Assembly (NCBI GenBank): GCA_964388035.1
Contig: CAYLZE010000046.1
Location: 1-37,175 of the forward strand
DNA from: an uncultured archaeon
GTDB taxonomy: Archaea; Asgardarchaeota; Lokiarchaeia; Sigyniarchaeales; SOKP01
Direction of reading: 5' to 3'
Length of the DNA: 37,175 nt
Part shown: positions 7,481 to 31,776 of the stretch, piece by piece
How positions within the stretch are numbered: the stretch's first letter is position 1
Layout: each line of letters begins with the position of its first letter
The notes under the pieces: generated by a model
What the model saw: the letters and a program-made list of their open reading frames with translations, nothing else
Told to the model about the DNA's origin: nothing
Database searches by the model: none
Translations under genes and position numbers: made by a program

Positions 7481-7725
7481 ATATTAAAGAAAGATCGCCT
7501 AATAATAAGAATTTGGTTTAAAAAACTTTATAAAAGTCATGACTTGATTTTATTTTTTACTAAAGATATGATTCTTGTTAATAATTATACAAATTCTTTT
7601 GAAAGTGATAATAGTAATATTCATCACCTACTAACCACACGATAGCACAGAATTATTAATACAATTCTTTTTTCTAAAAAAAGGATGGGATTTATATTTT
7701 AACGGCTTTTTAATTAACTTGATAG

Positions 7726-10107: not shown

Positions 10108-10449
10108 AAAATATATTAATTTTATGAAGTCTTTAATGATTTGGATAGTTTCTACCTATATTATTTCATCATAATATCGAAATACTATATTTCAAAAAAA
10201 AGCTAAATCAAATAATTAGACACAAATACTTATTAATGTAAGTATAAGTGTCAAAGTAATGCTTAAGAACTATCAAATGTATAATAATGTACATGTGAAT
10301 ATTCTATTTTACTGAAAATGTAGATAATTTAAATTAAACGCGATAAAATTGAAAAATATTAAGAAATTTTAATGATAAATGAAATCATATTACATAATCC
10401 TTTTAGATAACTATAATCATTTAATTATAAAATAGTGTAAATACTATAC

Positions 10450-11271
10450 ATGGAACAAACAAAACTAAAGGTTATTTGTGAAGTTATTTCTGTAATTATT
10501 ATTCTTAGATTAATTATATGGTTACTTCCTCTTACCAATGTTTATTACATTCTTGATGATATATTTTATTGGAATTATCTTAGTCATATTCTATTTTTAA
10601 TTGTGCCAATTCTCATTATTGGAATATGTAAACGTGATTTCAAATTATATGGGCTTCATTTGAAGACGATTAAAATAGATTTGATTTTTTTCTCGCTTTT
10701 GATAATAGGAATCTTAAGTCCTCCTTTAATTGCAGTAATTCTAAATATATTACAATTTAATTTTGAAAAATATCCACAGCAATATTTATTCTCTACTTTC
10801 TTTTTTCAAATTGTTGTTACTGGATTCACCGAAGAAATATTATATCGGGGTTATTACCAAAGTAGACTAAACGATGCTTTTAAAAAACCTTACCACCTGG
10901 AAAATTTCAATTTTGGACCAAGCGTGATAATTGTTGCGATATTATTTGGATTAGCTCATGTCCTAAATCCTTTCAATCCTATCAGAGGACAATTTTCATT
11001 AAATTTTATTGCAGGAATCTTTACAACTCTCATTGGGTTGATTTTGGGCTTTGTTAGGGAAAAAACAGAGAGTATCTTCGCTCCGAGTTTAATTCACGGC
11101 GTATATAATGGCTTTATCGTCTATTTATCAGGGGACTATTCCGATATATTTATCACTATAGGATGGAGCATAGCATATATAATGTTTTTCTTTTGGCTGT
11201 TTAGATTGGAATCGAAAGAACTTGATAACTTTCATGAAATTCTTCTTGAGAAAACTATAAACATCCAATAA
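10450..11271 (+). CDS. CPBP/Abi (CAAX protease-like) intramembrane metalloprotease
   Basis: EEILYRG, FGLAH and IHGVYN motifs in a multi-TM protein. Confidence 0.9.
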   Translation: MEQTKLKVICEVISVIIILRLIIWLLPLTNVYYILDDIFYWNYLSHILFLIVPILIIGICKRDFKLYGLHLKTIKIDLIFFSLLIIGILSPPLIAVILNILQFNFEKYPQQYLFSTFFFQIVVTGFTEEILYRGYYQSRLNDAFKKPYHLENFNFGPSVIIVAILFGLAHVLNPFNPIRGQFSLNFIAGIFTTLIGLILGFVREKTESIFAPSLIHGVYNGFIVYLSGDYSDIFITIGWSIAYIMFFFWLFRLESKELDNFHEILLEKTINIQ

Positions 11272-11434
11272 CATTCAAATCTTTTTTTTTAAGAAAAGCT
11301 TAGTCGATACGGTTTAATTTTAAATTTTATGAGCAAAATTACGACCAAATCAAGATTTGAATTTTTAATTCGAGGAGTTATCATAAAAATTGGATTACTC
11401 TAGTTTTTTAATAAATAAAAATGTGTGAATAAAT

Positions 11435-11914
11435 ATGGCACAAAAAGTATGGATAATGCATGATACCAAATTTGGTAATGGAAAGAAGTTGGCAGAATCA
11501 CTCAAACAGCAGTTTTCTGATGAGTATGAAATAACCATTGGAGATGTGAAAGAAATAACCCCAATGACTGTGGCAAATACTACTCCCAATATATTAATCT
11601 TGGGAGGCGCTGTTCGCGCATTCCACGGAGCACCGGCTTCAAAGAAATGGCTTAAGCAGTTAAATGTAAAGTTAAAGGAACAAAATAAAACAATTCAATA
11701 TGGAATGGGTTTTTTAACCCATGGCTTACCTACCGATAAGGTGCAAGGTTTTGCCAAAAGATTTTTAAACAAAATTATAGACGCATCAATGATTGAAAAA
11801 ACTTATTCCCCCATGTTAACTACTCGAGTCATGGGACAAAAAGGACCAATATATGAAGAAGAAATGGATAAGTCACAGCAATATATTCAAGATTTTATTC
11901 GATGGATGAAATAA
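11435..11914 (+). CDS. Flavodoxin-like domain protein
   Basis: N-terminal HDTKFGNGKKLAE resembles the flavodoxin P-loop (S/TxxGNT). Also ILILGGAV. Confidence 0.7.
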   Translation: MAQKVWIMHDTKFGNGKKLAESLKQQFSDEYEITIGDVKEITPMTVANTTPNILILGGAVRAFHGAPASKKWLKQLNVKLKEQNKTIQYGMGFLTHGLPTDKVQGFAKRFLNKIIDASMIEKTYSPMLTTRVMGQKGPIYEEEMDKSQQYIQDFIRWMK

Positions 11915-11938
11915 TTAATAACAATTAAAATATTTTAA

Positions 11939-12772
11939 TTATTTGTTTAATCCTACAAGGGTCTCACTAACGGTCCACAAATGTCTTGCCAAGTCCGCAT
12001 CATATGTTTGATCAGAAGTTTTGACCATTTTTTTATTTTTAAAATACTTTCCCGTAATATCTGTCACTTCATCAGAAGTAGCTAAATAAATGGGTGTTTC
12101 TGCTCCTTTTTGGGGCCTCTTAAATAATATCTTGATAAATAGACGAGAAAAGAAATCCAATTCTCGACCTATATTTGTACTTATAATTCCAGGATGTAAA
12201 GCATTTACACTTACACCAGTTCCATCCAATCTTCTACTTAATTCATAAGTGAAGAGTATAAGAGCTATTTTGGATTGTCCATAGGCTTTAAATTTAGAGT
12301 AATTTTTCTCCGATTGCAAATCATCCATGTTTAATTTATAATGTTCATGTTCACTTGAAGAGACATTTATTATTCGGGAAGGGGCACTGTTTTTTAAAGT
12401 GTTTAGTAAAAGATTTGTTAATAAAAATGGTGCTAAATAATTTACAACAAAAGTCATTTCAATATTATCTTCAGATAATTCTCGATGCTTCTTTATGATC
12501 CCCGCATTATTAATAAGAACATCTAATTTTTTGTATTTACGATTAAAATTTTCAACAAGAGCACGAATTTGAGTTTGGGAGGATAAATCCGCAATGAGAA
12601 CATGAATGTTATTATTATTTGACTTTTTTATAATGTTTTCTTTTACTAAATTACATTTTCCCTCATTTCGACAGATCATTATAATTTTAGCTCCTTTTTG
12701 AGCTAATCCCAAGGTAATTGCTTTCCCTAGTCCCGAATTAGCTCCCGTAATCATTATAGTTTTTTCATTCAT
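11939..12772 (-). CDS. Short-chain dehydrogenase/reductase (retinol dehydrogenase-like)
   Basis: TGANSGLG, NNAG, YGQSK (YxxxK) and HPG motifs. Confidence 0.93.
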   Translation of the reverse strand: MNEKTIMITGANSGLGKAITLGLAQKGAKIIMICRNEGKCNLVKENIIKKSNNNNIHVLIADLSSQTQIRALVENFNRKYKKLDVLINNAGIIKKHRELSEDNIEMTFVVNYLAPFLLTNLLLNTLKNSAPSRIINVSSSEHEHYKLNMDDLQSEKNYSKFKAYGQSKIALILFTYELSRRLDGTGVSVNALHPGIISTNIGRELDFFSRLFIKILFKRPQKGAETPIYLATSDEVTDITGKYFKNKKMVKTSDQTYDADLARHLWTVSETLVGLNK

Positions 12773-17197: not shown

Positions 17198-18721
17198 TTA
17201 GCATCTGTTAGATGCGATTGAACTTTCTAATTCAGTTAACTTGACTGCTGATTTTAAGGGATATTCTCCCGTGAGACAAGCCAAACATAATTGATTTTGG
17301 CTCAATCCGATGGCATCTATTAAATCATCTAATTTTTGATAAAGAAGGGTATCAGCATCGATTTTTTTTCTAATTTCTTCAAGAAAATGCTCGCCATATT
17401 CTTTTTGAAAACGACCAGCAATTAATTCATTTCTGGTAGGAAAATCAATTCCCATGTAACACGCGTTTCTGACAGGAGGGCAACTAATTCTCACATTCAC
17501 TGATCTAGCTCCTGCAGATCTTATCAGAGAAACGATCTGTTCTGTGGTAGTTCCTCTCACGATAGAATCATCTAATAATATAACATCTTTTCCTTCGATA
17601 ACACTCTTTATAGGATTTAATTTTTCCTTGACCGCAGTCTTTCTCTTCTGTTGCCCCGGCATGATGAAAGTTCTCCATACATAACGATTTTTCATTAGAC
17701 CTTCCACATAAGGCAGCTTCGCTTCCTTTGCATAACCTACAGCAGCGCTTCTACCAGAATCAGGGACAGGAACCACGATAGCATTTTCTAGAATTTCAGG
17801 ATCCTTTAATAAAGGATCTCTTTTAGCTAGATTCATGCCTAATTTAAGGCGTGCATCTGCTACGGCAACCCCATCAATAATGGAATCGGGTCGAGCAAAA
17901 TATACGAATTCGAACATGCATAATGCCGTTTTATTTGCCTTTAATACCATTTCCGAATGTATTTCTTTCTGATGACTTAAATGAACGATTTCTCCAGGCA
18001 GAACATCTCTCAGAAAGTTTCCCCCTACTGCATCGATAGCACAAGACTCGGATGCCACAAAATAAAGATTGCGTTTATCTGTTCTAAGTTCCCCGATACA
18101 CAAGGGTTTGAATCCTAAGGGATCGCGCATTGCATAAATGTCGCCTTTATTCGTCAATAGAACTAAGGAATAAGAGCCATCCAAAAATCTACTTGTTATC
18201 TTTAATACTTCTGGCCAATCTTCTGTTCCCATTCTAATCGATCCAATCAATTGTGCAATAACCTCCGTATCAGTATTGGTGACAAATATACGCCCCATTT
18301 CGCTCATCTTATTCTTAATTTCTTCAAAATTTGGTATTGTTCCGTTAAAAGCAAAAGCAAATTCAATCTCATTGTTTTTAAAGTAATAAGGTTGGATATA
18401 GTCGATGCTAGAATATTCTTCGGAACCTGTCGTCGCATATCTATTATGACCTATGCCAATATTTCCCCAAAATTGAGAGAGCTTCTTCTCATTTAAAACC
18501 TTGGATACTAACCCTAATTTTTTATACGTATAGATGTTCGTGCTTCCCGTGTTCATTATTGAAATGCCCGTGGACTCTTGACCACGATGTTGGAGGGCAA
18601 TAAGTCCTTTATACAATAAACTAGCGACAGAAAAACCAACATCATCACTACTCACCCCAAAAACAGCACACTTTTCTTTAATCTTTTGGAATCCCAGATC
18701 ACAGGCTTTGTTTTTGCGCAT
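17198..18721 (-). CDS. purF: Amidophosphoribosyltransferase (propeptide- and Fe-S-containing type)
   Basis: 17-aa propeptide then CAVFG, LQHRGQES, HNRYAT, YFARPDS and DDSIVRGTT. Fe-S cysteines in CMFE, CYMG and CLAC. Confidence 0.97.
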   Translation of the reverse strand: MRKNKACDLGFQKIKEKCAVFGVSSDDVGFSVASLLYKGLIALQHRGQESTGISIMNTGSTNIYTYKKLGLVSKVLNEKKLSQFWGNIGIGHNRYATTGSEEYSSIDYIQPYYFKNNEIEFAFAFNGTIPNFEEIKNKMSEMGRIFVTNTDTEVIAQLIGSIRMGTEDWPEVLKITSRFLDGSYSLVLLTNKGDIYAMRDPLGFKPLCIGELRTDKRNLYFVASESCAIDAVGGNFLRDVLPGEIVHLSHQKEIHSEMVLKANKTALCMFEFVYFARPDSIIDGVAVADARLKLGMNLAKRDPLLKDPEILENAIVVPVPDSGRSAAVGYAKEAKLPYVEGLMKNRYVWRTFIMPGQQKRKTAVKEKLNPIKSVIEGKDVILLDDSIVRGTTTEQIVSLIRSAGARSVNVRISCPPVRNACYMGIDFPTRNELIAGRFQKEYGEHFLEEIRKKIDADTLLYQKLDDLIDAIGLSQNQLCLACLTGEYPLKSAVKLTELESSIASNRC

Positions 18722-18857
18722 GATGATTAGAAAGAAATTAAAGATATTCTATTTCATATTCAATTAATTAAAATCTTTTATGATTTTTAATTATTGTTTT
18801 AATAAAGTATTAACAATTTCCGCATTTGAGCATTAAAAAGTAAATATTATACTTGCG

Positions 18858-19553
18858 ATGACATCTGCATTATCTCTCATGAATTTAGCTTTCGTAGTTC
18901 TTATAGGAGGAAGAAGTAGACGATTCGGGACCGATAAAGGACTTTTCAAAATAAACGGGAAGTCTATAATCTCATATGAATTAGAGATTTTATCCCATTT
19001 TGATAAATCTATTTATATTGTAGCACATGATGAATGTCAAGCAAATTCTTATAAAAGTATTTTACTTTCTGACGAGTCTATTGCTCATCTTTTTAGCAAT
19101 AATACAATTTCATTTATTTTTGACGATACTTCCATGGTTAACAATCAAGACACTCGAACGCCATTATTAGGACTTTATTCAGCATTTCGAGAATTAAATA
19201 TAAAAGGATATAATAAATGTTTTGTTTTATCATGTGATATACCTTTCATTAAAATAGAAGTCATCCAATTATTAATAGAAGAATCCGTCGAATATGAAGG
19301 TGTAATCCCAATATGGGAGAATGGATTTTTAGAACCATTATTTTCTATTTATCCCGTGGATAAAGGATTAGAACAAGCTAAGGAAAATATTATTAATAGA
19401 GATTATAAGTTAATTAAATTAATCCGAGAGGATTGGAACATCAATTTCCTTCCTATTGAAAGCAAAATAAAATCAATCGATAAAGATTTAAAGACCTTCA
19501 TTAATTTAAATGAAAAAATGGATATCAAAAGATTTAATACATTTATGAAATAA
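18858..19553 (+). CDS. mobA: Molybdenum cofactor guanylyltransferase-like NTP transferase, copy 1
   Basis: LIGGRSRRFGTDK, PLLGL, LSCDIP, EPLFSIY and FINLN. Confidence 0.85.
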   Translation: MTSALSLMNLAFVVLIGGRSRRFGTDKGLFKINGKSIISYELEILSHFDKSIYIVAHDECQANSYKSILLSDESIAHLFSNNTISFIFDDTSMVNNQDTRTPLLGLYSAFRELNIKGYNKCFVLSCDIPFIKIEVIQLLIEESVEYEGVIPIWENGFLEPLFSIYPVDKGLEQAKENIINRDYKLIKLIREDWNINFLPIESKIKSIDKDLKTFINLNEKMDIKRFNTFMK

Positions 19554-19577
19554 ATATTGAACTGGGGTATAATAAAA

Positions 19578-20252
19578 ATGAAAATAGATTCACTGGATTC
19601 CAAATATTTAGCAATAATGATACTTATCGGGGGAGAAAGTAGACGTTTTGGATTAAAAAATATAGAATTCGAATTTTCAGGGAAACCCCTTCTCTTATAT
19701 CAAATGGAAACGTTATCGAAATTCGATAATGATGTGTTCTTAGTTGCGCATTCACCAAACCAAGTTGAAACCTATTATAAAAAGTTTAAAATTGACCGCA
19801 ATAAATTCATTATTGATGATAAGGAAATCATTCCTTACGATAAAATTAGAACTCCCATGATTGGAGTTTATTCCGGTCTTAAGTCGTTAAATGAGATGGG
19901 ATTTGACAAAGCTTTTGTACTCTCTTGTGATATGCCCTTAATTAAACCTAATGTTATTAAATACATGATTGAACAATCTGAATCTCATGATTGCGTTGTA
20001 CCTCGATGGAAAAATGGATATTTAGAAACGCTATTTACGATTTATCCCGTGAAAAAAAGTTATGAAAAAGTAAAACAATTATTAGAACAAGAGATCTTTT
20101 ACCTAAATGAATTAATTGATGATCAATGGGATATTAACTTTATTTCCGTGGAAGATTCCATTAAACCCTTGGATGCTAATTTAACAAGCTTAATAAGCAT
20201 TAACGGACCAATCGATTTAGAGAAACTCATAAAGTTGTTTTTAATCCCATGA
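19578..20252 (+). CDS. MobA-like NTP transferase, copy 2 (divergent)
   Basis: LIGGESRRFGLKN, LSCDMP and ETLFTIYP. Clearly paralogous to the upstream gene. ATG at 19578 is preferred. Confidence 0.8.
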   Translation: MKIDSLDSKYLAIMILIGGESRRFGLKNIEFEFSGKPLLLYQMETLSKFDNDVFLVAHSPNQVETYYKKFKIDRNKFIIDDKEIIPYDKIRTPMIGVYSGLKSLNEMGFDKAFVLSCDMPLIKPNVIKYMIEQSESHDCVVPRWKNGYLETLFTIYPVKKSYEKVKQLLEQEIFYLNELIDDQWDINFISVEDSIKPLDANLTSLISINGPIDLEKLIKLFLIP

Positions 20253-20348
20253 AAATTTACCCTCAAATGGTTGAAATTTCAAGAAAACAATTATTATATT
20301 TTAAAAATTCTAATAAAAATACCTATATATCAATAATAGTCAAGAGTT

Positions 20349-20729
20349 ATGAGTCAAAATTTTAATTGGGATGAGATTAAGGCATCTCTCGAAAAATTGG
20401 TTGAAATAAAAAAAAGTGATGAGGATTTAAGTATAACTCTAAAAGTTTTAGATGAAGGGGCTAAAAATAATAAGTTAGTAGGAAACTTTATGAAGGATGA
20501 GGATGAGATGAAAAAAAATCTTAACCAATTTCTTGGAAGAACTGATCCCTTAGAATGTAAAATAATCATGGATGAGGAAAACAGAGAAATTTTGATAACT
20601 TTTTCTCATCAAGAAGATTATTCTAAAGTTTATGAATTATTCCACAATATGTTTTTTGGAGATTTTTTTAAAGAAATGATTGAAACAATGATGGGCGCCT
20701 TCGGAAGCATGTTTGGCAAGGATGACTGA
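20349..20729 (+). CDS. Hypothetical protein (126 aa, acidic)
   Basis: Clean ATG-started ORF with protein-like composition. No family recognised. Confidence 0.75.
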   Translation: MSQNFNWDEIKASLEKLVEIKKSDEDLSITLKVLDEGAKNNKLVGNFMKDEDEMKKNLNQFLGRTDPLECKIIMDEENREILITFSHQEDYSKVYELFHNMFFGDFFKEMIETMMGAFGSMFGKDD

Positions 20730-20874
20730 CGTCTTATATAATGATATATTCTCTATTTTAGTTGAAAGATGAGAATCTATTTTTTCCGATTTATCGAGAA
20801 TAGTATTAAGAATTTCTTTAATACTTAAGGGTAAGGGTGACATTATACATGAATCTATTGAGGTGAAAGGTCAT

Positions 20875-20887
20875 AAACCTTATATTT
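20875..20887 (+). promoter_or_regulatory. Candidate BRE-TATA promoter of the enolase-superfamily gene
   Basis: AAACC-TTATATTT about 40 nt upstream of the ATG at 20926. Confidence 0.35.
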
Positions 20888-20925
20888 CTACAAAATAATT
20901 ACTACCTACATATACATTCATATTA

Positions 20926-22104
20926 ATGATTTTGATGAAAGAAAAAATAGTGCGCGTGGAGTTAACTCCATTATATGTTCCATTTAATGCAGTTGCAAGG
21001 AAAGCAATGGGTGAGAGTGAAGGGGGGATTGGAATGTCTCATCCTTCAGAAGAAGAATGGTTGGGAGCAGAGTTTGTTATTGCAAAAGTGATATGTGATA
21101 ATGGGAGTGTAGGGTTGGGGGAATCATCGATATGGCTCCCTGAAAGTGGAATTACACCCCTACAAGTCATTGATGTCATTAAAAAAGGAAAATTGGCAAA
21201 TTATGTAATAGGAGAAAGCCCTTTCAATGTGGAAAAAATTAATCAAAAGATGGATGATAATGTAGCCCGAAATGATCAAGCTAAGGGTTTACTAGATATG
21301 GCTTGTTATGATTTAATGGGAAAAATTGCGGGGATTCCTGCTTGCTGTTTTATGGGAGGGCGTAATGTGGAGGAAATACCACTTGCAGCTCTCATTCCAT
21401 TAGGATCTCCCATGTTAATGAGAGGATTGGTTAGAAGTTATTATAGGAAAGGATATAGGACATTTAGATTGAAGCTCGGAAGAAGTATCCAAGAAGACGT
21501 TGAGATCTTGAAAACCATAAGGAAAGCATTGGGCAATGATATTCGGATACGCGTGGATTATAACCAAGTATATACCCCTTCACAAGCAATTAAAGCAATA
21601 AAAGCAATCGAACCGTATAATATCGATTTTGTGGAACAACCCGTTAGGACAGGAGATTATATGGGAATGGCTTATGTACAAAGTAAAGTCGATACTCCTT
21701 TAATGAATCATGAAGATTTCTTTAACATGAGGGATTTTATTAGCCTTGTTGAATTAGGAGGGGCTCGAGTATTAGGACTACAATCTGATCGCCCTGCGGG
21801 GGTTACTAAAGCCCTTAAATTGATTCATTATGCTAGATGCAAGGGTGTAGAAGTAATGATCCATAAAGAACCTTTAGGGATTTGCTCAGCCATGCTTATT
21901 CATTTACATGTCGGACAATATTATTCAATTGACCACGCAACAGAATTATTTGGCATGGAGATGATGGAAGATGATTTGATTGTTACTCCTATTGATTATA
22001 GCGGGGGTACTGCTAAGCTACCAGAGGGTTCAGGTTATGGCGTGGAACTCGATGAAAAATCCTTACAGAAATACGCAACAGGAGAGACTATAATCATTGA
22101 ATAA
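20926..22104 (+). CDS. Mandelate racemase/muconate lactonizing enzyme family protein (enolase superfamily)
   Basis: GLGES, LDMACYDLMGK, FRLKLG, RVDYN, VEQP and GSGYGVELD. Confidence 0.9.
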   Translation: MILMKEKIVRVELTPLYVPFNAVARKAMGESEGGIGMSHPSEEEWLGAEFVIAKVICDNGSVGLGESSIWLPESGITPLQVIDVIKKGKLANYVIGESPFNVEKINQKMDDNVARNDQAKGLLDMACYDLMGKIAGIPACCFMGGRNVEEIPLAALIPLGSPMLMRGLVRSYYRKGYRTFRLKLGRSIQEDVEILKTIRKALGNDIRIRVDYNQVYTPSQAIKAIKAIEPYNIDFVEQPVRTGDYMGMAYVQSKVDTPLMNHEDFFNMRDFISLVELGGARVLGLQSDRPAGVTKALKLIHYARCKGVEVMIHKEPLGICSAMLIHLHVGQYYSIDHATELFGMEMMEDDLIVTPIDYSGGTAKLPEGSGYGVELDEKSLQKYATGETIIIE

Positions 22105-22320
22105 TACGATATTACTTGATGATAATAAATTCTTTAATGTATAAAATCCCTATATTTTCATTATTTTTTTTGATCTCGTTATTTTTTCTGATTTCATGCT
22201 CTCTCGTGTTTCAACAAAATAACTTATTTAAATGATAAACACGAAGATAAAAATATAATTATATAATTTAGTCTTCTTAAAAAATGTAAATTATAATTAA
22301 GTAATAGGGGATTAGCTTAA

Positions 22321-23727
22321 ATGAGTACTATTAAAGAGCATCATGAAGTGCCCACATATATACACTCCAAGAAGATAATGACTTCCTATTCCGCGGGCGA
22401 ATTCGTATATGAGTTCACTCAAGGTATTTTGGTTTTCATTTTATTTTATTTTTATGAAGTGGAAGTAGGATTGGGAGCCTGGTTGACGGGTATAGCGTTA
22501 ATGATCTATTCTCTATGGGACGCAATCAACGATCCCTTAATTGGATATCTATGTGATCGACCAAGAGGATTTACTAAAAAATGGGGTCGAAGATTTCCTT
22601 GGATGATAATTGGATACATCCCAATGTTGATCTTTTTTCTATTAATTTTTTCACCTCCCAATATTGATGCCCAAACTCAACCTTGGACGATATTTATATG
22701 GTTAGTTGTAGTTTTATGCCTATTTGATACCTTTGAAACTTTATTTACTTCTAACTTTTTCGCATTATTCCCGGATAAATTTAGAGGAGATGATGAACGA
22801 GTAAAAGCTTCTTGGATTTACGTGTATTTAGGATTGATTGGGGTCGTCCTTGCTAATTTACTCCCGCCCATAATAATTATATACGGAAATTTGGGATCTT
22901 TTGCTTTAATGGCTTGGATTGCAATTATTATTAGTCTCGCTAGCGGGGTCGTAATGATACCCGGAATTAAGGATGATAAAAAATCTGTAGAAGAATATCT
23001 TTCAAAATATGATAAGATTGAAAAGGAATCTTTTATAACCTCTTTAAAAGCAGCTATTAAACATAAATCTCTCATCGGATTTCTATTTTTGTTTCTTGCT
23101 TGGATAAACTTATCTAGCATGGTTCAATCCTCCTTTTTATATGTAGTCCGTTTTGTTTTATTAGGAGAAACTGGCGATGTGTTAATTTTAATGGTCATGT
23201 TTCTCTTAGGAGTCATAATAGGCATTCCTATATGGTTTAAATATTATAAAAAGGTAGAAGATAATCGGAAAACCATGATATACACATCCATTGCATGTGT
23301 AATAATGACGGCCCTCCTTAGCTTTATGACGACATTAATTTCACTTCTTATTGTTATATTTATATGGGGCATAGCTCTTGGCGGCTTTTGGGTAATTTAT
23401 ATTCCTACATTTTCGGACGTCATCGACGAATCGATAGCAACAACCGGAATACGACGAGAAGGATTTTATTCAGGAATCAGACGATTTTTCAGCAATTTTT
23501 CCCGTGTAATTTTATCACTCCTTTTCGCCCTTGTCCATGATCTTACAGGATTTGTGGAAACATCTGACATTCAAACACCTTTGGCCAATATGGGAATATT
23601 ACTTCTTTTTGGAGTAGTTCCCGCGAGTATCATGGTCTTAGGATTGATTATCTTCTGGAGATTATATGAAATTACTCCCGATAGGGCAAAATCAATAAAG
23701 GAAAAACTTGCAGAGCTTAAAATCTAA
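22321..23727 (+). CDS. MFS transporter, glycoside-pentoside-hexuronide (MelB-like) family
   Basis: WDAINDPLIGYLCD, WGRRFPW and DVIDE...RREG. About 12 TMs. Confidence 0.92.
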   Translation: MSTIKEHHEVPTYIHSKKIMTSYSAGEFVYEFTQGILVFILFYFYEVEVGLGAWLTGIALMIYSLWDAINDPLIGYLCDRPRGFTKKWGRRFPWMIIGYIPMLIFFLLIFSPPNIDAQTQPWTIFIWLVVVLCLFDTFETLFTSNFFALFPDKFRGDDERVKASWIYVYLGLIGVVLANLLPPIIIIYGNLGSFALMAWIAIIISLASGVVMIPGIKDDKKSVEEYLSKYDKIEKESFITSLKAAIKHKSLIGFLFLFLAWINLSSMVQSSFLYVVRFVLLGETGDVLILMVMFLLGVIIGIPIWFKYYKKVEDNRKTMIYTSIACVIMTALLSFMTTLISLLIVIFIWGIALGGFWVIYIPTFSDVIDESIATTGIRREGFYSGIRRFFSNFSRVILSLLFALVHDLTGFVETSDIQTPLANMGILLLFGVVPASIMVLGLIIFWRLYEITPDRAKSIKEKLAELKI

Positions 23728-23860
23728 TTTATATTCATTTCTTCTTTTTTTTATTTTAGATTATTCTGGATTGTTTAAATTAACAAGAGCGCGTCTATAT
23801 CATTCATGATGAGAGCATTTAGAAGCATGTGAAAAGTAAAAAGTTATTCTAACGTATCTC

Positions 23861-24952
23861 TCAGACCAGATTCAAGCAATTTCCTAAACACTGAGCGATG
23901 CAAGCATGACAATTAATGCATTTATCTGGATGTTCTATTTTGGCCTTTTTTGTGTCATTATCGAACGTGAACACATTTCTTGGGCATACATCAAGGCAAT
24001 TTTTACACCCGATACAATCCTCTTCAGTAATATTGATTGTTCCATAAGATGCCAACTTATATTTGCTGAAAAGAAAACTCATTTCTTTGCTTCCTTTTTT
24101 CCATTGGCGCTCCCCTAATTCACTTTTATATATAGGAGTAAGCCCATGGAAATCTTCTGCCATTAATAAGAGGAATAATATCGAGAGAACTAAATCCCAG
24201 CCAAGATAAAAATAATTTAAAGAAAGTACCAGATTATAAAAGACTACCAAGAAGACGACGATACAACCGTAAATCAAAACTTTTTTCCAGCCTTTTTCTC
24301 CCGGAATGCTAGGTAAGAAGAGCATTGAACCATAAATGACAATCACGAGTAAAGCAAGTGTATGTAAATATAATACCAAATTCAATGCCGGGACGAAAAA
24401 AGCAGTAATCCAATATACAGCGCTAATTAAAATAAGTAGCATGAAAAAATATAGATTGCCCATTTCTAATCTTGATAGAATAGGAAAAGCGACTTTCTTC
24501 TGTTGTTCTGTTTTTGTGAATTGGTTTCTTACATATACAGGAATATCTTTTGCATGGATCGGTCCGAATTTGACATTCCATCCAGTGCTTTCTTTCACCT
24601 TCTTTGGTATTATGCCAGGAGCGCTTAATTGAGGTAAGATAAGAATTTTATGATCAACAAGATCATCGATATTACTTGTTTTTATAATGGAAATTACCGA
24701 ATTTGAATTAAAATCTCCTCCGCATGCACCACACCATACATTAATTCCATTTGAAGGAGCAACTAATAAAAAGCAATCCATGTTTTGTATGGCTTTTAAA
24801 ACCCGTTTTACTGTAAGAATAAAATTGCACGTGAGAAAAACGGGACTATTTCGAGTAGGATTTCCCACCTTGATTAACGTTGGTTCCATTGGAAATCCAA
24901 TCCATCGAAAAAAGTAAGCCCCCAATAATTTTAACATACTTTTCAAAGACAT
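23861..24952 (-). CDS. HgcAB-like fusion protein (corrinoid-binding CdhD/HgcA-like domain + ~4 TM + 2[4Fe-4S] ferredoxin)
   Basis: GNPxxxSPVFLTCNF, cap helix GINVWCGACGG, ILPQLSAPG and FGPIHAKDIP. TM region ends DFHGLTP. Ferredoxin motifs CIGCKNCLDVCP and CINCHACIAQC. Confidence 0.92.
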   Translation of the reverse strand: MSLKSMLKLLGAYFFRWIGFPMEPTLIKVGNPTRNSPVFLTCNFILTVKRVLKAIQNMDCFLLVAPSNGINVWCGACGGDFNSNSVISIIKTSNIDDLVDHKILILPQLSAPGIIPKKVKESTGWNVKFGPIHAKDIPVYVRNQFTKTEQQKKVAFPILSRLEMGNLYFFMLLILISAVYWITAFFVPALNLVLYLHTLALLVIVIYGSMLFLPSIPGEKGWKKVLIYGCIVVFLVVFYNLVLSLNYFYLGWDLVLSILFLLLMAEDFHGLTPIYKSELGERQWKKGSKEMSFLFSKYKLASYGTINITEEDCIGCKNCLDVCPRNVFTFDNDTKKAKIEHPDKCINCHACIAQCLGNCLNLV

Positions 24953-24993
24953 AACATTACTCTATATAGAATTGATAATTAATAACTTTTTAT

Positions 24994-25650
24994 TCATTTT
25001 TTTTTAGCTCGAATTAATTTCAAGGAATCCAATAAAAATTCCTTTTCCTCAATAATTAGAAAATTATTTTTTTTTAATAAATCTATAATTTCCTTTAAGG
25101 GATGAGTGGTTAAATGAGTGGAGAAGAAAGTCACAATTAGGAGTGGTATCCTGATTAAAGCATAGATTATTCTTTTCCACATCTTTTTCGGTTTTACCTC
25201 ATCTAAAATAATAAATTCTCCATCAAGTTTCAGAATTCTATGTACCTGTCTAATGCAAAACTCCATTTCTTTTTCATATAATTCACTAAGAACTAAAATG
25301 GCCGTCACTTTATCAAATGAATCGTTCGGAAATTTTTTATCTAAATCAATAATAGGCATTTCAAATATGGTAATTAGAGAGGATAAATCTAGCTTAGAAA
25401 TCTTTTTTTTTCCAACTTCTAACATTTTTTCAGACTGATCAATACCAAAGACATGATACCCTTTTTCAGCACAAGCAATCGCAAATGACCCCGTTCCCAT
25501 TCCAATATCTAAAATCTCCTCGTTTTCCCTTAAATAATTGTCAATGATATAGTCTTTTATCTTGGATAATTTGCCTAAAGTTAAGAGTTGAATGCCTTTA
25601 TCATATTTTTCTGCTTTATTCTCCAATGATTTCATATAAACATAAGACAT
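24994..25650 (-). CDS. Class I SAM-dependent methyltransferase (resembles corrinoid protein-associated CpaM-type enzymes)
   Basis: ILDIGMGTG motif I, RILKLDG post-II motif and N-terminal SYVYMKSLE...YDKGIQLLTLG. Co-oriented 41 nt upstream of the HgcAB-like gene. Confidence 0.88.
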   Translation of the reverse strand: MSYVYMKSLENKAEKYDKGIQLLTLGKLSKIKDYIIDNYLRENEEILDIGMGTGSFAIACAEKGYHVFGIDQSEKMLEVGKKKISKLDLSSLITIFEMPIIDLDKKFPNDSFDKVTAILVLSELYEKEMEFCIRQVHRILKLDGEFIILDEVKPKKMWKRIIYALIRIPLLIVTFFSTHLTTHPLKEIIDLLKKNNFLIIEEKEFLLDSLKLIRAKKK

Positions 25651-26037
25651 TGTTAACAGGGTTCCGAAAGATAAATAATGGTATTATTTCTAAGTAATAA
25701 GAAAAAGCAATATAAATATAAGTCACTTAAAAAATTATCATCTCCCATCAATGATATCTTAGAATATGCCTCTTATTCTTTTTTCGCTTTTTCCATTATC
25801 ATTCCAGCACAAAAATCATAATGTTAATATATCATATAGTCATGACATGTTAGATGGGGCTATAAAATTAGTGATGAATAATTCTGAAATTGATAAGATA
25901 GATTTTAGGTATTAAGTAAAGTGCAATTTCAAGGCTAAATTAAGGTAGAAAAAGGAAAAAAATGTTTTCAATGATTTTAAAAACCTTATTTCATTTTAAA
26001 AAAATTATTATTTATTTTTTGATATAGTGAATTTAGA

Positions 26038-26883
26038 TTGGAAAACAAAAACTTTGTACAAAAGCATAAGATATTGATTTTTAATATTCTTGCTTTCGCA
26101 TGGACGTTTGTATTATTGGGTATCGTAATTTTAGTATCGGGTGTCGGTCTCGATCCCTCATCTCTTCCCATCTGGCAGTTCATAATTGTCTTTATCGGGG
26201 GTTTTGGACCTACCATTGCGGGAGTATTTGTAACCCGCATGACAGGTAATAAGGGAATCCTATGGAAACGTATTAAAATGTACAAGCAACCTGCTTGGCT
26301 TTATGTTTTTGCATTAGGATTGATATTTGTAATTGCCATTATCTCCATGATCCTTGATTCATTATTGGGGATTCCCATAGACTCTGCCTCCGATATGCTT
26401 GCCGTTCTTCCATTAGCGTTAATTTGGCCTCTCTTTTCTAGTACAGGTGAAGAACCAGGGTGGAGAGGAGTATTATTGCCAGAATTGCAGAAAAAGTATT
26501 CTCCATTCATTTCTGCGTTGGTCGTAGGAACATTATGGGGTTTGTGGCATTTTCCCTCTTATTTTATCGCTCTAGGGACGTTAGGCATTAACTTCATTCC
26601 TTATTTCATTCTATCGGGTCCGATTAGTTTTATTGGATTAACGATTGCGATGACCTTTGTATACAATAAGTCCAAAGGTAGCTTGTTCTTAATGATTCTA
26701 ATGCACTACACAATAACTATGACGGGGATTTTATTTGTGCGATTGGATCTCACGTTCGAACAAACGCTCGTCCATTCCTCCTTGAGTTTCAGTTTATACA
26801 TTATTCTTGATATAATAATTATCTTGTTTAACCGGAAGGAATGGATAATGCAAAAGCATGAACATCCTTTGGAAAAAACATAA
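26038..26883 (+). CDS. CPBP/Abi (CAAX protease-like) intramembrane metalloprotease
   Basis: GEEPGWRG, WGLWHFP and ILMH motifs in a multi-TM protein. TTG start. Confidence 0.9.
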   Translation: MENKNFVQKHKILIFNILAFAWTFVLLGIVILVSGVGLDPSSLPIWQFIIVFIGGFGPTIAGVFVTRMTGNKGILWKRIKMYKQPAWLYVFALGLIFVIAIISMILDSLLGIPIDSASDMLAVLPLALIWPLFSSTGEEPGWRGVLLPELQKKYSPFISALVVGTLWGLWHFPSYFIALGTLGINFIPYFILSGPISFIGLTIAMTFVYNKSKGSLFLMILMHYTITMTGILFVRLDLTFEQTLVHSSLSFSLYIILDIIIILFNRKEWIMQKHEHPLEKT

Positions 26884-27079
26884 ATTGTTAGCTATTTTTT
26901 TTTAATTTAGTATCTTGAATATCCTTAATTTTGTCGCTTGCCTTGCTTAATCATTAATTATTAAATTGCCAAAGATCTTGTCATGCATTTTGATTTAATT
27001 TCTTCTTATTTTACTTGAGATTGATTTCAAATGACATTATAATGAAAATTGCTTTAAGTTTAAAATCAACTCCAAGCGA

Positions 27080-28507
27080 TTAAATAAAACCTTGATTATG
27101 ATACTGAACCATTTTTGAACCCGATTTTCTCCATTCTTCTCCGATAGTTTGAAAAAGATTGCGTGCTCGCGCATTAGCTTTATCAATGATTTCTTGTTCA
27201 TCTATCACTTGAAAGGTATTATTCATGAGTATCGGATTTCCATTGATAATGACATGATCTACTTCATTTCCTTTATTTGAATAAATCAAATTTGCGATTA
27301 AATTCGAAAAAGGCTCGTCAATGATAGGAGTAAAATGAGCATAATTTAAATTTACAAGGATTATATCTGCTTTTTTCCCAACCTTTAGACTTCCAATCTG
27401 ATCCTCAAGCTGCATTACTTTTGCCCCTCCAAGAGTAGCTAAATGTAAAGCTTTCCATGGAGGTAAAGCGGTAGGATCTCGCTTAGTAATCTTGGATAAC
27501 AGGCTAGCCATTCTTAGTTCATTAAATAAATTATGATGTCCCGTGCCCGGTGCTTCATCGGTGCCCAGTCCAGCTTTTCCTCCTAATTCTAAATAATTAA
27601 CAAGGGGAGGGATGATCCCATCGATCTTTGAAATGGAGCTAGGACATCCTACCATTTGAACTCCTTTTTTGACCATTAACTCTCTTTCTTGCTCGGTAGT
27701 ATCATGTATATGAGCAGCAATTAAATGAGAATCCATTAAGTTATTTTTATCTAACACTTTTACTGTCGTCAAGTCATTCCCAAATCTTTTTTTAATTTGT
27801 ATTCGTTCTCTTTCTCCTTGAGCTACATGAACATGGATTTTTGAGTTTCTAATCTTAGCTTCTTCATGGATTTCTTTTAGTAACTCTAAAGATACCATAT
27901 CCAGAGCATTTGGTCCATACATGCAAGATACTAAAGGATTGTCTTGAAATTCCTTAAATAATTTATTGGCTCGTTTGAATGCGCTCCTACCAAGATACTC
28001 ATAGAAGGAATAAGGTTCATACGGTTTCTTTTCCTCAGAGAAGTCCAATTCCGAAATCATCTCTGTAGCTACAACTCTAGCTTTAAATGGGTTGTATATC
28101 TTGTTGATTAAGCTTGATAATCCTATGCCATATTCTGTGAAAGTGGTCGTGCCTGCTCTCAAGCCCTCGAGAACAGCCAGTTTCGTGCTTAGTAGGAAAT
28201 CTTCTCCTTTTAATAGATTGGCGAAGAGGCTCAATCCTTTTGGCATGTACTCGATCTCCGGCAAATCATGTGCCATTCCTCTACAGAGCGTTAGCATAGA
28301 ATGGGTGTGAGCATTAATTAGCCCGGGAAGAACAACATGATTGTCATTTCCATTAATGAGGATATCTGCTTGTCGGTAGTTAAAGCCCTCCATTTTCCCA
28401 ACATAGGAAATATGATCCTTTTCAATTCCCATCGCCCCGTGTCGAATGAATCCCAGACCTTTTCCTTCCATGGTGATAATCCTGGAATTAATAATTGCAA
28501 TATCCAT
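27080..28507 (-). CDS. Amidohydrolase family protein (MtaD/TRZ-ATZ-like)
   Basis: PGLINAHTH, GTTT, HVHVAQ, AAH, GLGTD, ATLGGA and GSLKVGKKAD. Confidence 0.92.
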   Translation of the reverse strand: MDIAIINSRIITMEGKGLGFIRHGAMGIEKDHISYVGKMEGFNYRQADILINGNDNHVVLPGLINAHTHSMLTLCRGMAHDLPEIEYMPKGLSLFANLLKGEDFLLSTKLAVLEGLRAGTTTFTEYGIGLSSLINKIYNPFKARVVATEMISELDFSEEKKPYEPYSFYEYLGRSAFKRANKLFKEFQDNPLVSCMYGPNALDMVSLELLKEIHEEAKIRNSKIHVHVAQGERERIQIKKRFGNDLTTVKVLDKNNLMDSHLIAAHIHDTTEQERELMVKKGVQMVGCPSSISKIDGIIPPLVNYLELGGKAGLGTDEAPGTGHHNLFNELRMASLLSKITKRDPTALPPWKALHLATLGGAKVMQLEDQIGSLKVGKKADIILVNLNYAHFTPIIDEPFSNLIANLIYSNKGNEVDHVIINGNPILMNNTFQVIDEQEIIDKANARARNLFQTIGEEWRKSGSKMVQYHNQGFI

Positions 28508-28548
28508 TTTTTTTCAACAGTAACAAATGAGTTTTAATTATTTTACCA

Positions 28549-29640
28549 TCAAGAATTCTTAAGTTCTTTAAAGTATAATTTTCGGTGCTTTCGATCCATT
28601 TGATTAAATTCTTTCTCGGCTTCTTCGGAGGGAAGTACGATAATCGTTCCATCTTCTTTCTGAATAACGCAACCAGAATTGACCAAAAGCTCGTAATTCT
28701 TTGATGTTTCTTCTGAATCTCCGAAACAAATCAATTGGCAATTTCCGCAAGTTAATTTTGTATCTCTAATCATTTCTAAAGCGCTTTTATCTCCAATCAT
28801 CACTGAGCTTAACTCTAAATTTTGTTCCAATTTAGACATGTCAATTCCACCAGGTTCGTCGGGATTTTTTGGCCATTTAGACGCGTTAGTTACACATAAT
28901 GAAAAAAGTCGGGTAACATCTTTATCCGTTTCAGGGTAAGGATATCTCCCCGGCGACCATGTTGACCACTTCTTTGATTTATCTAATCCTGATAGCCCAC
29001 CGCATACGATTTGACACCTCCCGATATTTCTCCTTTTTGCGTAAGTGAAAGTGCTATCCCCCAAAGAAATAGATTCAGTCTCTTTAGTATCAAACATTCT
29101 CATTGCACAAACCTTGGTACATAATTTACATTTTGAGCAGAAGGATTCTTCCTCGGGCATAGGTTCGGTAGGAGCAAGTATTGCGGATGTAACTAAACAT
29201 CCTAAAATGATAGCACAACCTTGCCCTTTCATTCCAACATTTCCCGACCAGCCAAAAGAACCCACGCCGGATCTCACTGCTATATACCTGAGTGCAATCT
29301 CTGGAAACATTCGTAATTCCCATCCGGGAATCTCTTCTCTATATTTGAAATTAGGAAACACCTCCACAGCATCATATCCCTTATTTTGGAGTAATTTCGA
29401 AGTTTCTTTAGCCAATAAAAAGGCTCTCACGTTTGTTTCGATATTATCTATCTCGTGATCTACCCTTCCATTAGGCATTTCTTTTTTCAAAAAGGATCGT
29501 ATTTTTTCTTTATTTAATGGGAGTGCAAAACATATGGCGGATTCTGCGCTTGGTAATGGATAAGTTATATCAATACTTGGTGGTCCTCCTTGTAATGTTT
29601 TCTTGGTAGCCACGCCAACTCTTAAAGCACCACTATCCAA
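28549..29640 (-). CDS. Epoxyqueuosine reductase (QueG)/reductive dehalogenase-like cobalamin Fe-S protein; start uncertain
   Basis: AVRSGVGSFGWSGN (cobalamin-domain AGLGxxGxxG-like), CSKCKLCTKVC, CQIVC and CGNCQLIC. The frame stays open 12 codons upstream of the TTG. Confidence 0.8.
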   Translation of the reverse strand: MDSGALRVGVATKKTLQGGPPSIDITYPLPSAESAICFALPLNKEKIRSFLKKEMPNGRVDHEIDNIETNVRAFLLAKETSKLLQNKGYDAVEVFPNFKYREEIPGWELRMFPEIALRYIAVRSGVGSFGWSGNVGMKGQGCAIILGCLVTSAILAPTEPMPEEESFCSKCKLCTKVCAMRMFDTKETESISLGDSTFTYAKRRNIGRCQIVCGGLSGLDKSKKWSTWSPGRYPYPETDKDVTRLFSLCVTNASKWPKNPDEPGGIDMSKLEQNLELSSVMIGDKSALEMIRDTKLTCGNCQLICFGDSEETSKNYELLVNSGCVIQKEDGTIIVLPSEEAEKEFNQMDRKHRKLYFKELKNS

Positions 29641-30051
29641 TAAATTTTGTTCAATTTCTTTAAAAAATGATATTGATCATCACCTTGAGTGTAAACGGTT
29701 ATTAAACTAAAACCCGATTTCTTTTATATTTTATGAATTAGAGTGCTCATTTAATTGAATTGGCTCATTTATATTTCAAAACGAGTTTTAAGGTGTTTAA
29801 TTCCAATTTTTAGTCATTTTTAATTATTTAGTATAGCTATTTTTGATTCAAACAATAACCAATCATGTAATTACTACTAATCTTATCATGTTTAAATGGG
29901 AATATTATATCTTATAAGAAGACGTGAGATTTTCCCATTAAACTTTAGTAATACTTTATTTAAATTAAGAATTCTTTTATGTAATAACACGTGTACTATA
30001 ATAATATTATTTAAATAATCAAATTTACAGCCAGAATCAAGGAAAACTAAT

Positions 30052-31776
30052 ATGAGTGATTCGATAATTATTAAAAACGGAATTATATTTGATCCGATCA
30101 ATAATATAGATGGGGAAAAAAAAGAGATTCACATTCAAAACGGGAAAATTGTTGAAAAGGTAAAAGGGGATGCGAAAGTAATAGATGCCTCTGGCATGGT
30201 TGTCATGCCTGGTGGGGTAGATATACATTCCCATATCGCGGGAGCTAAAGTAAATTCGGGAAGATCTTTTCGCCCCGAGGACAAACATTTCGAAGCTACC
30301 ATGAAAAAAACAAAGATAACTCGAAGCGGAACAGGATTTTCAGTACCTTCTACTTGGATAACAGGATATAAATATGCCAAATTGGGATATACCACCGTTT
30401 TTGAACCTGCAATGCCCCTTCTTGAAGCTCGCCATACTCATGAAGAATTCTTAGAAATGCCCATTATTGATAAAGGAGCTTTTCCGATATTAGGAAATAA
30501 CTGGTACGTGCTCGAGTATGTTAGAGAAAATGACATGGAAAAATTGGCAGCCTACATTGCCTGGGTTCTTAAAGCAACGAAGGGTTATGCAATTAAAATC
30601 GTTAACCCCGGAGGAGTAGAAAACTGGGCTTGGGGCAAAAATTGCGAAAGTCTTGATGATCCTGTTGTGTATTGGGATGTAACACCAAGACAAATAGTGG
30701 AAAGCTTAGCAAAAGTTAATGAAATGTTAGAATTACCCCATTCCATACATATTCACTGCAATAATCTGGGACATCCTGGTAATGTAAATCATACCATTGA
30801 TACCTTCAATGTTACTAAAGACTTGGATATTAAACGAAAGGATCGAAAAACAAGTTTACATTGCACTCACGTTCAATTTAATGCGTATAGTGGAACAAAT
30901 TGGAAAGATTTTAAATCGGGCGCATCTGAAATTGCTGAATATGTTAATGCAAACAGTCATGTCACTGTTGATGCAGGACAAGTTGTTTTTACAAAATATG
31001 CAACCACCACCATGACTGGAGATGGTCCATGGGAATTTGCCCTTCATCACTTGGGCGGAGTAAGCCCCTGGGGCAATAAACCAGGAGTAAAATGGATTAA
31101 CGGTCAAGTAGAAGCAGAATCCGGTTCAGGAATAGTTCCCTATTTCTTCACGCCATCTGTTGGTGTAAATGCCGTGCAATGGGCAATTGGGCTAGAAATC
31201 ATGCTATTAGTAAAAAATAAATATCAAATCTTCATGACCACCGATCATCCAAACGGAGCACCTTTTACGACGTATCCCATCGTAATTAAATGGTTAATGG
31301 ATCGCAAGGCAAGAAAGGAAATGCTTGAAAAGGTTTCTAAAAAAGCCAGTACAGATACGACTCTCCCGGATCTTGACCAAGAATATTCATTGAATGAACT
31401 GTGCATTGTCACCAGAGCAGGGACCGCTCAATGCTTGGGATTGAAAGATAGAGGGCATATAGGTGTAGGTGCTATAGGTGATGTATCCATTTATAAGTTA
31501 GATCCTAATAATTATGACGGGAAGGCAATTGAAAAAGCTTTTTCCGCCGCAGCATACACCTTAAAAGACGGACAGATTGTTGTGAAAGACGGAGAAATCG
31601 TTGCCGCACCCATGGGAACTCTTCTTTGTGCGGAAGGAAAAATCAAGGAAAGCGTATATGACGCAACGCTTGAGGATGTAAAGCTACATTGGCGAGACCA
31701 TTATAGCATTAATTTCAACAATTATGCCGTTCAAGATGTTTATGCTCCTAAAGTTAAAATTGTTAATGGAGTATAA
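30052..31776 (+). CDS. fwdA: Formylmethanofuran dehydrogenase subunit A
   Basis: GGVDIHSHIAG, PSTxxTGYxYAxLGYTT, KIVNPGG, SIHIHCNNLG, QWAIGLE and TTDHPNGAPF. Confidence 0.96.
   Translation: MSDSIIIKNGIIFDPINNIDGEKKEIHIQNGKIVEKVKGDAKVIDASGMVVMPGGVDIHSHIAGAKVNSGRSFRPEDKHFEATMKKTKITRSGTGFSVPSTWITGYKYAKLGYTTVFEPAMPLLEARHTHEEFLEMPIIDKGAFPILGNNWYVLEYVRENDMEKLAAYIAWVLKATKGYAIKIVNPGGVENWAWGKNCESLDDPVVYWDVTPRQIVESLAKVNEMLELPHSIHIHCNNLGHPGNVNHTIDTFNVTKDLDIKRKDRKTSLHCTHVQFNAYSGTNWKDFKSGASEIAEYVNANSHVTVDAGQVVFTKYATTTMTGDGPWEFALHHLGGVSPWGNKPGVKWINGQVEAESGSGIVPYFFTPSVGVNAVQWAIGLEIMLLVKNKYQIFMTTDHPNGAPFTTYPIVIKWLMDRKARKEMLEKVSKKASTDTTLPDLDQEYSLNELCIVTRAGTAQCLGLKDRGHIGVGAIGDVSIYKLDPNNYDGKAIEKAFSAAAYTLKDGQIVVKDGEIVAAPMGTLLCAEGKIKESVYDATLEDVKLHWRDHYSINFNNYAVQDVYAPKVKIVNGV

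Follow-up and report, generated by a model that had tools for sequence, protein, structure and literature searches.

CpaM and an HgcAB-like fusion protein as a probable membrane-anchored corrinoid methyl relay in an Asgard archaeon

What does a relative of the mercury-methylation protein HgcA do when an S-adenosylmethionine (SAM) methyltransferase is encoded immediately before it? The question is raised by a 37,175-nucleotide stretch of DNA (contig CAYLZE010000046.1, positions 1 to 37,175; G+C about 32%), here called the window, from a Loki-type Asgard archaeon with a genome of 5.47 Mb. On its reverse strand the window carries cpaM, encoding a SAM methyltransferase, followed by an hgcAB-like gene, encoding a corrinoid domain, a membrane domain and a ferredoxin in a single chain; the nearest homologues of the pair are named Promethearchaeota. 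We propose that the two proteins probably act together as a self-contained, SAM-fed, membrane-anchored corrinoid methyl relay. The sister family of HgcA to which they belong bears on the native role of the HgcA family and on the origin of mercury methylation, and occurs in a wide range of anaerobes. Among them are Promethearchaeum syntrophicum MK-D1, which is in culture, and, going by published work, Pyrococcus furiosus, which is amenable to genetics.

The product of cpaM aligns with the full NCBIfam model of the corrinoid protein-associated methyltransferase CpaM (NF043040; profile positions 1-216 of 216) and scores 245.9 bits, above the cut-off of 180. That of the second gene scores 373.6 bits with the model of the HgcAB-like fusion protein (NF043039; cut-off 285) and aligns with positions 5-349 of 350. 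The initial annotation had described a two-gene unit with a 41-nt gap, in which a class I SAM methyltransferase precedes one polypeptide joining an HgcA-like corrinoid domain, about four transmembrane helices and an HgcB-like 2[4Fe-4S] ferredoxin. This description holds in each of its parts, the gap and both open reading frames (ORFs) lying where they had been placed (Table 1), as does the accompanying remark that the family itself is not new, both proteins having been named by NCBIfam. The further suggestion that the pair is a candidate uncharacterised system stands in part: the family is uncharacterised, and a literature search found nothing relevant for CpaM or for the P. furiosus gene PF0728, but the pair is already catalogued as NF043040 plus NF043039 and the window copy is an ordinary one. 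It agrees with the module known as "fused HgcAB" from P. furiosus and Methanococcoides methylutens in gene order, domain order, cap-helix Cys, four transmembrane helices and eight cluster Cys, and shows no essential difference from it, only two additional Cys that are common in its subclade. The window copy contributes no new feature to the family, and the interest lies in the chemistry of the family.

Matches to the Pfam families Methyltransf_11, 25 and 31 (E 1e-16 to 1e-17) and a SAM motif that reads LDIGMGTG in the window copy identify CpaM as a class I methyltransferase. Within the CpaM family (alignment A2; the HgcAB-like family is alignment A1), LDIGxGTG and the acidic D71 are invariant, while the conserved residues outside the SAM site are few, mostly acidic or Pro (E10, Y16, D17, S122-E123, E128, D150-E151, P154, R167 and P169), and none of them in A2 is a Cys or His. 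The alignment, hydropathy and the AlphaFold2 (AF2) model agree on a conserved hydrophobic helix, specific to the family, at about residues 157-178. The best fold match of the AF2 model (predicted local distance difference test, pLDDT, 86.9) is Coq5 (4obw; template-modelling (TM) scores 0.80/0.75), and further matches include the bacterial phosphatidylethanolamine (PE) N-methyltransferase 8ys9, the phosphoethanolamine methyltransferases and methyltransferases with SAM bound. UbiE and MenG are the nearest named families in sequence; CpaM scores far below their cut-off (TIGR01934, 68.3 bits against 158) and differs from them in its smaller size and its strict association with a corrinoid protein. 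The candidate identity of an ArsM-like arsenite methyltransferase was rejected, as A2 has no invariant Cys and the ArsM models reach 34-35 bits, far below their cut-offs.

The AF2 model of the HgcAB-like protein (pLDDT 84.9, predicted TM score 0.79) finds its best Foldseek match in the deposited HgcAB model 9a0b_A, followed by large subunits of the corrinoid iron-sulfur protein CFeSP. Its N-terminal domain matches PF03599 (residues 23-139, E 6e-19) and, in a phmmer search of the PDB, the CFeSP large subunit 4djd_C (E 7.7e-11), and superposes on 4djd_C, 2ycl_A and 4c1n_G with an rmsd of 2.4-2.7 over about 128 columns; from the homology to CFeSP and HgcA the protein would be expected to bind a corrinoid and Fe-S clusters. 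In the cap-helix motif G69, I70, N71, W73, C74 and G78 are invariant (A1), and C74 is the presumed cobalt ligand. C77 makes the motif a WCxxC variant; this second Cys is frequent in archaeal members and not universal in the clade. Within VWCGACG the two Cys stand one helical turn apart, like those of thioredoxin WCGPC, and the second could serve as a redox switch or second ligand. Four helices at residues 158-186, 192-215, 221-243 and 247-266 cross the membrane in the AF2 model, and the positive-inside rule places both ends of the protein in the cytoplasm. The C-terminal ferredoxin contains two full CxxCxxCxxxC motifs (residues 313-355), all eight cluster Cys being invariant in A1, and the protein ends CIAQCLGNCLNLV, 8 residues past the last cluster Cys and without a Cys-rich tail. 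We also considered a class B (cobalamin-dependent) radical SAM methylase and rejected it, as both clusters have four Cys ligands and no radical SAM family matches.

The initial annotation had staked its proposal on conservation of the gene pairing, and the pairing proved to be obligatory in both directions. Scanning one genome per prokaryote species yielded 80 HgcAB-like loci, distributed over Asgard lineages, Bathyarchaeia, Hadarchaeota, Chloroflexota (frequently Dehalococcoidia), Acidobacteriota, Aminicenantes, Bacteroidota, Calditrichota and Desulfobacterota; the cultured MK-D1 contributes one of them. When L081, a locus labelled Methanobacteriota, was used to search for homologues, no Thermococcales were returned, that GTDB phylum being represented by 38 genomes. 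A cpaM gene lies upstream on the same strand at 76 of the 80 loci, and at the remaining four the available upstream DNA is shorter than 330 bp, so that all 76 testable loci are paired, 74 of them with the two genes directly adjacent. The converse was examined in a metagenome scan with the generic pattern LDIGxGTG, whose 80 loci comprised 22 of CpaM type and 58 unrelated methyltransferases that served as a negative set: an hgcAB-like gene lies directly downstream at 18/18 of the CpaM-type loci with downstream DNA and at 0/58 of the generic ones. Among 121 Asgard genomes, 22 encode an HgcAB-like protein above cut-off, and every one (22/22) has an adjacent CpaM above cut-off; three genomes gave CpaM only, one of them through a fusion to an HgcA-like domain below cut-off and two through apparently truncated matches. 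No CpaM-like gene was found within 1.5 kb of canonical hgcA at 12 loci from Desulfobacterota. The pair has no conserved third member: when 863 ORFs from the 80 loci were clustered, no neighbour recurred in more than 13 loci, and a Pfam census of 128 flanking ORFs gave at most five members per family, ABC-2 transporters being the most frequent.

The two genes are also repeatedly joined. Single-chain proteins of 582-642 residues, composed of methyltransferase, corrinoid, transmembrane and ferredoxin domains, occur in archaea and bacteria (L057, L058, L078, L082, L093, L096 and P0108) and have at least three separate origins in the methyltransferase tree. Their domain order always equals the gene order, with the methyltransferase directly before the corrinoid domain. 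Because such fusions exist, direct contact between CpaM and the HgcAB-like protein is likely. The initial annotation had called for co-folding the two proteins, and the co-fold gave weak support. The pair passes our mark with an ipSAE (interface score) of 0.58 (runs 0.58, 0.61 and 0.57; best control 0.00), the runs sharing at least 49% of contacts at a partner pLDDT of at least 76; 58 of 80 solved complexes pass the same mark, as do 2 of 110 mismatched pairs. The score falls in a weak band, however: among the passes, values of 0.60 or below were given by only 7 of the 80 solved complexes, yet by both passing mismatches.

How the family relates to canonical HgcA, a placement that the initial annotation had left to tree building, was addressed in a tree of corrinoid domains rooted on CFeSP as outgroup. 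The window protein falls in an Asgard subclade (100/97, starred) inside the fused-HgcAB clade (96/90, starred), whereas canonical HgcA forms a clade of its own (100/99, starred). Seven of the eight sampled members of the Asgard subclade have the second Cys of WCGAC and an extra Cys four residues past the last cluster Cys. Both families share a homologous corrinoid domain, a Cys-bearing cap helix, a membrane anchor, a 2x[4Fe-4S] ferredoxin and SAM as the likely methyl source, but the window protein scores 164.3 bits against the canonical HgcA model NF040863, below the cut-off of 275, and has four transmembrane helices where five are described for canonical HgcA (PMC11588087). Its cap helix, NVWCGACG, departs from the canonical N(V/I)WCA(A/G)GK; NVWCAAG(K/A)G was printed for 8 of the 12 canonical loci, and in the other four the pattern search halted at an earlier N-x-W site. 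Canonical HgcB (NF040864) is a separate protein with a Cys-rich tail, whereas the window ferredoxin is fused and lacks the tail, and the partner methyltransferase that is obligatory in the window family was not found within 1.5 kb of the 12 canonical hgcA genes. With CFeSP (AcsC/CdhE) and its methyltransferase MeTr the module shares a homologous corrinoid fold and, in the relay proposed here, the principle of a methyltransferase docking on the corrinoid domain; CFeSP differs in being soluble, in taking its methyl group from methyl-tetrahydrofolate through a TIM-barrel methyltransferase and in having no Cys ligand.

Purified canonical HgcAB provides the closest biochemical precedent: its Co(I) is methylated by SAM and not by methyl-tetrahydrofolate, with stoichiometric release of S-adenosylhomocysteine (SAH) (Zheng et al. 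2024, PMC11588087), a demonstration with which SAM as the methyl source at our locus, as given in the initial annotation, would be in keeping. Since canonical HgcAB uses SAM, the likeliest mechanism for the window pair is a SAM methyl relay loaded by CpaM. The 2x[4Fe-4S] ferredoxin domain at the C-terminus, which the four transmembrane helices would keep on the cytoplasmic side, would reduce the Cys-ligated corrinoid to Co(I). SAM-bound CpaM would then dock on the corrinoid domain and transfer its methyl group, acting on cobalt by analogy with canonical HgcAB, to give methyl-Co(III) and SAH. Finally, the methyl group would leave the thiolate-ligated methyl-corrinoid, probably in the form of a radical or carbanion equivalent, and pass to an acceptor positioned at the face of the membrane; transfer of a methyl radical or carbanion to Hg(II), after two-electron reduction by HgcB, has been proposed for the canonical proteins (PMC11588087). 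The putative methyl-loading enzyme being attached, the first half-reaction can be tested with the published HgcAB assay (PMC11588087).

Several points weigh against this relay and in part favor other readings. AF2 leaves the cap helix unstructured (pLDDT below 50 at residues 73-75), the co-fold pass is a weak one, and no conserved third gene at the 80 loci points to an acceptor. Canonical HgcAB, moreover, takes SAM without a partner methyltransferase, so that a partner is not strictly needed for loading (PMC11588087). The closest folds to CpaM (Coq5, TM score 0.80; PE N-methyltransferase 8ys9) methylate membrane lipids or quinones directly, and its hydrophobic helix could mean that it acts on a substrate rather than on cobalt. 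CpaM might then methylate the same membrane small molecule or lipid as the corrinoid protein, in a reaction of its own, with SAM reaching the corrinoid directly. The self-sufficiency of canonical HgcAB, the match to Coq5 (4obw, 0.80/0.75), 8ys9 and the phosphoethanolamine methyltransferases, the kinship with UbiE and MenG, the conserved helix at 157-178 and the recurrence of PEMT/ICMT-like membrane methyltransferases near the cassette in Promethearchaeota all suit such an enzyme. In our judgement, however, the few conserved residues of CpaM do not outline a small-molecule pocket, the fusions invariably put the methyltransferase directly before the corrinoid domain, and the co-fold pass, weak as it is, speaks for direct contact. 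Many of the carrier lineages are, to our knowledge, fermenters without quinones, and we regard two independent methylations as unlikely.

The remaining alternatives keep CpaM at the corrinoid or change what the corrinoid does. Reactivation of MetH combines SAM with a low-potential electron donor, and the built-in ferredoxin would suit a reductive activation of this kind, in which CpaM re-methylates oxidised Co(II) while another molecule serves as the routine methyl donor. We give such a repair module only a slim chance: across the 80 loci the module has no further methyl-donating enzyme as a conserved neighbour, and in canonical HgcAB SAM is the catalytic donor and methyl-tetrahydrofolate is inactive (PMC11588087). 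Slighter still is the prospect that reductive catalysis, for instance of a dehalogenase-like kind, is the main task of the corrinoid protein, with CpaM processing a product or substrate. Dechlorination of CCl4 by heterologously expressed HgcAB has been described in a 2026 preprint (10.64898/2026.04.26.720869), and the cassette is frequent in Dehalococcoidia; the preprint, however, concerns canonical HgcAB and has no independent confirmation, and dehalogenation offers no clear role for a SAM methyltransferase that is obligatory and frequently fused. That the window pair is a genuine mercury methylase, finally, is very improbable, even though homology to HgcA and HgcB and the retained cap-helix Cys could be read in its favor. 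Besides the low score with the HgcA model and the divergence of its cap helix from NVWCAAGK, it lacks the Cys-rich HgcB tail with vicinal Cys that mercury methylation requires (PMC11588087). Ferredoxin domains of the fused family end 4-15 residues past the second cluster motif, whereas all 11 of the canonical HgcB proteins detected have a longer tail with the Cys of GVGC, and 10 of the 11 also have the vicinal Cys. According to the initial annotation, P. furiosus and M. methylutens, which carry a fused HgcAB, made no methylmercury, and the published tests of these two organisms bear this out (PMC5893877, PMC10083202).

To what, then, would the relay deliver its methyl group? The acceptor is probably not mercury. 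SAM enzymes can methylate nucleophiles unaided, and the detour through a corrinoid therefore suggests that the acceptor is an electrophile, for example an ion of a soft metal or metalloid; a thiol, which the initial annotation had listed among the candidate acceptors, would not require a corrinoid. Identifying the acceptor would reveal what this chemistry evolved for.

A second system encoded in the same genome bears on this point. It lies in an arsenic-type operon (L097; Table 1) and includes an ACR3 arsenite pump that scores just below cut-off (270.9 bits against 282.8), a 553-residue fusion of a CpaM-like methyltransferase with an HgcA-like corrinoid membrane domain (cap helix GINVWCAARG), an HgcB-like ferredoxin that is encoded separately and has a long tail rich in Cys, and two small conserved ORFs (103 and 110 aa). 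Its ACR3-fusion-HgcB core is retained in 8 of 10 related genomes, and MK-D1 carries this system as well as the CpaM/HgcAB-like one. Over 1000 relatives of the fused MT::HgcA family, in which MT denotes the methyltransferase, go by no name more specific than "methyltransferase domain-containing protein". As in the window pair, a methyltransferase of CpaM type is coupled with a ferredoxin and an HgcA-like corrinoid membrane protein. The second system differs in that the methyltransferase is fused to HgcA, the ferredoxin is separate, with a Cys-rich tail comparable to that of canonical HgcB (as in HgcB proteins of this type generally), and the operon is of arsenic type, whereas the window pair is without metal-resistance neighbours. 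Its corrinoid domain groups with canonical HgcA (95/79), while its methyltransferase domain forms the sister clade of CpaM (99/97, starred), so that each of the two deepest branches of the HgcA superfamily has members with a SAM methyltransferase partner. The deep division of the corrinoid tree recurs in the methyltransferase tree.

A lead towards copper comes from P. furiosus. Its PF0729 is probably AAL80853, the fused HgcAB, judging by accession arithmetic and a matching pair of annotations; PF0728 and PF0729 would thus be the probable orthologues of cpaM and the hgcAB-like gene. The accession is the one under which the fused HgcAB of P. furiosus is cited (PMC7438021). Both genes directly follow the copper chaperone gene PF0727, and in a study of CopR with a copper shock of 20 µM the log2 changes were 6.7 for the chaperone, 5.0 (32-fold) for PF0728, annotated as a SAM-dependent methyltransferase, and 3.4 (11-fold) for PF0729, annotated as a ferredoxin; induction stops at the membrane protein PF0730, which was unchanged at 0.28 (PMC7830388, supplementary file 3). 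Instead of a functional link, the induction could reflect transcription that reads through from the chaperone promoter. The deep split that the two partner trees mirror, the paralogue in the arsenic-type operon and the copper induction of these probable orthologues lead us to a tentative reading, which we hold to be possible though doubtful: the module may reverse the polarity of the SAM methyl group, taking it in as an electrophile and passing it on, as a radical or carbanion, through the reducible Cys-ligated corrinoid to a soft metal or metalloid ion in a metal-stress response. If this is true, the HgcA superfamily as a whole would ancestrally have had a SAM methyltransferase partner.

The genes that flank the cassette vary with lineage. 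ABC-2 exporter genes (permease plus ATPase) are its commonest neighbours, in unrelated contexts (L022, L027, L032, L043, L073, L074, L080, L083 and L095), and ABC ATPases are listed at PF0732/PF0733 in P. furiosus; they may hint at export of a product. A set specific to Promethearchaeota comprises an F420H2-quinone-reductase-like protein just downstream, PNPOx-like proteins, PEMT/ICMT-like membrane methyltransferases, a ZIP transporter and a second methyltransferase family of 227 residues (Table 1), none of which is present within this window. At our locus a convergent symporter gene and a divergent CPBP gene enclose the pair and thereby mark cpaM and the hgcAB-like gene as a stand-alone two-gene unit. 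The two putative TATA-like boxes lie 61-70 and 21-30 nt 5' of the cpaM ATG.

Table 1. Features of the cpaM/hgcAB-like locus (window coordinates) and of related loci
Feature	Position	Strand	Description or basis
cpaM (P0002)	24994-25650	-	218-aa ORF; coordinates exactly as in the initial annotation
cpaM/hgcAB-like spacer	24953-24993	-	41 nt, AT-rich, without obvious Shine-Dalgarno sequence (sequence reading)
hgcAB-like fusion gene (P0001)	23861-24952	-	363-aa ORF; coordinates exactly as in the initial annotation
Corrinoid-binding (CdhD/CFeSP-like) domain, residues 15-160	24473-24910	-	PF03599, PDB phmmer, Foldseek
Cap-helix motif GINVWCGACG, residues 69-78	24719-24748	-	Alignment A1
Four transmembrane helices, residues 158-266	24155-24481	-	Hydropathy, loop charges, AF2
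Invariant cytoplasmic loop D267-x-x-G270-x-x-P273 after the fourth helix	24134-24154	-	A1 columns
HgcB-like 2x[4Fe-4S] ferredoxin domain, residues 305-363	23864-24040	-	Pfam Fer4 families; NF040864, 46.7 bits
Candidate archaeal promoter of cpaM	25671-25720	-	AT-rich TATA-like boxes at 25711-25720 and 25671-80 (sequence reading)
Candidate archaeal terminator	23825-23860	-	Oligo-T runs past the hgcAB-like stop codon (sequence reading)
GPH-type symporter	22321-23727	+	Convergent, downstream of the hgcAB-like gene
CPBP/CAAX-protease-family membrane protein	26038-26883	+	Divergent, upstream of cpaM
Second system, same genome	Contig C9 94000-108200 (L097), 6645-11955		Divergent ArsR, DUF166, ACR3, MT::HgcA, HgcB-like ferredoxin, two small ORFs
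Promethearchaeota flank genes	L018 3593-4126, 5589-6556, 6697-7575, 7656-8339		Equivalent positions at other Promethearchaeota loci

Membership of the window pair in a metal-resistance operon was considered and rejected, no metal-resistance family being matched among the scanned neighbours (17198-31776). The divergence of the CPBP gene from cpaM is probably a coincidence because this gene was not seen at other loci. Farther out, two tandem paralogues resembling the molybdenum cofactor guanylyltransferase MobA are encoded on the forward strand at 18858-19553 and 19557-20252, both below curated cut-offs. On the same strand, 30052-31776 encodes the formylmethanofuran dehydrogenase subunit A, FwdA (TIGR03121, 776 bits), which is consistent with a one-carbon pathway of Wood-Ljungdahl type in the Asgard host genome.

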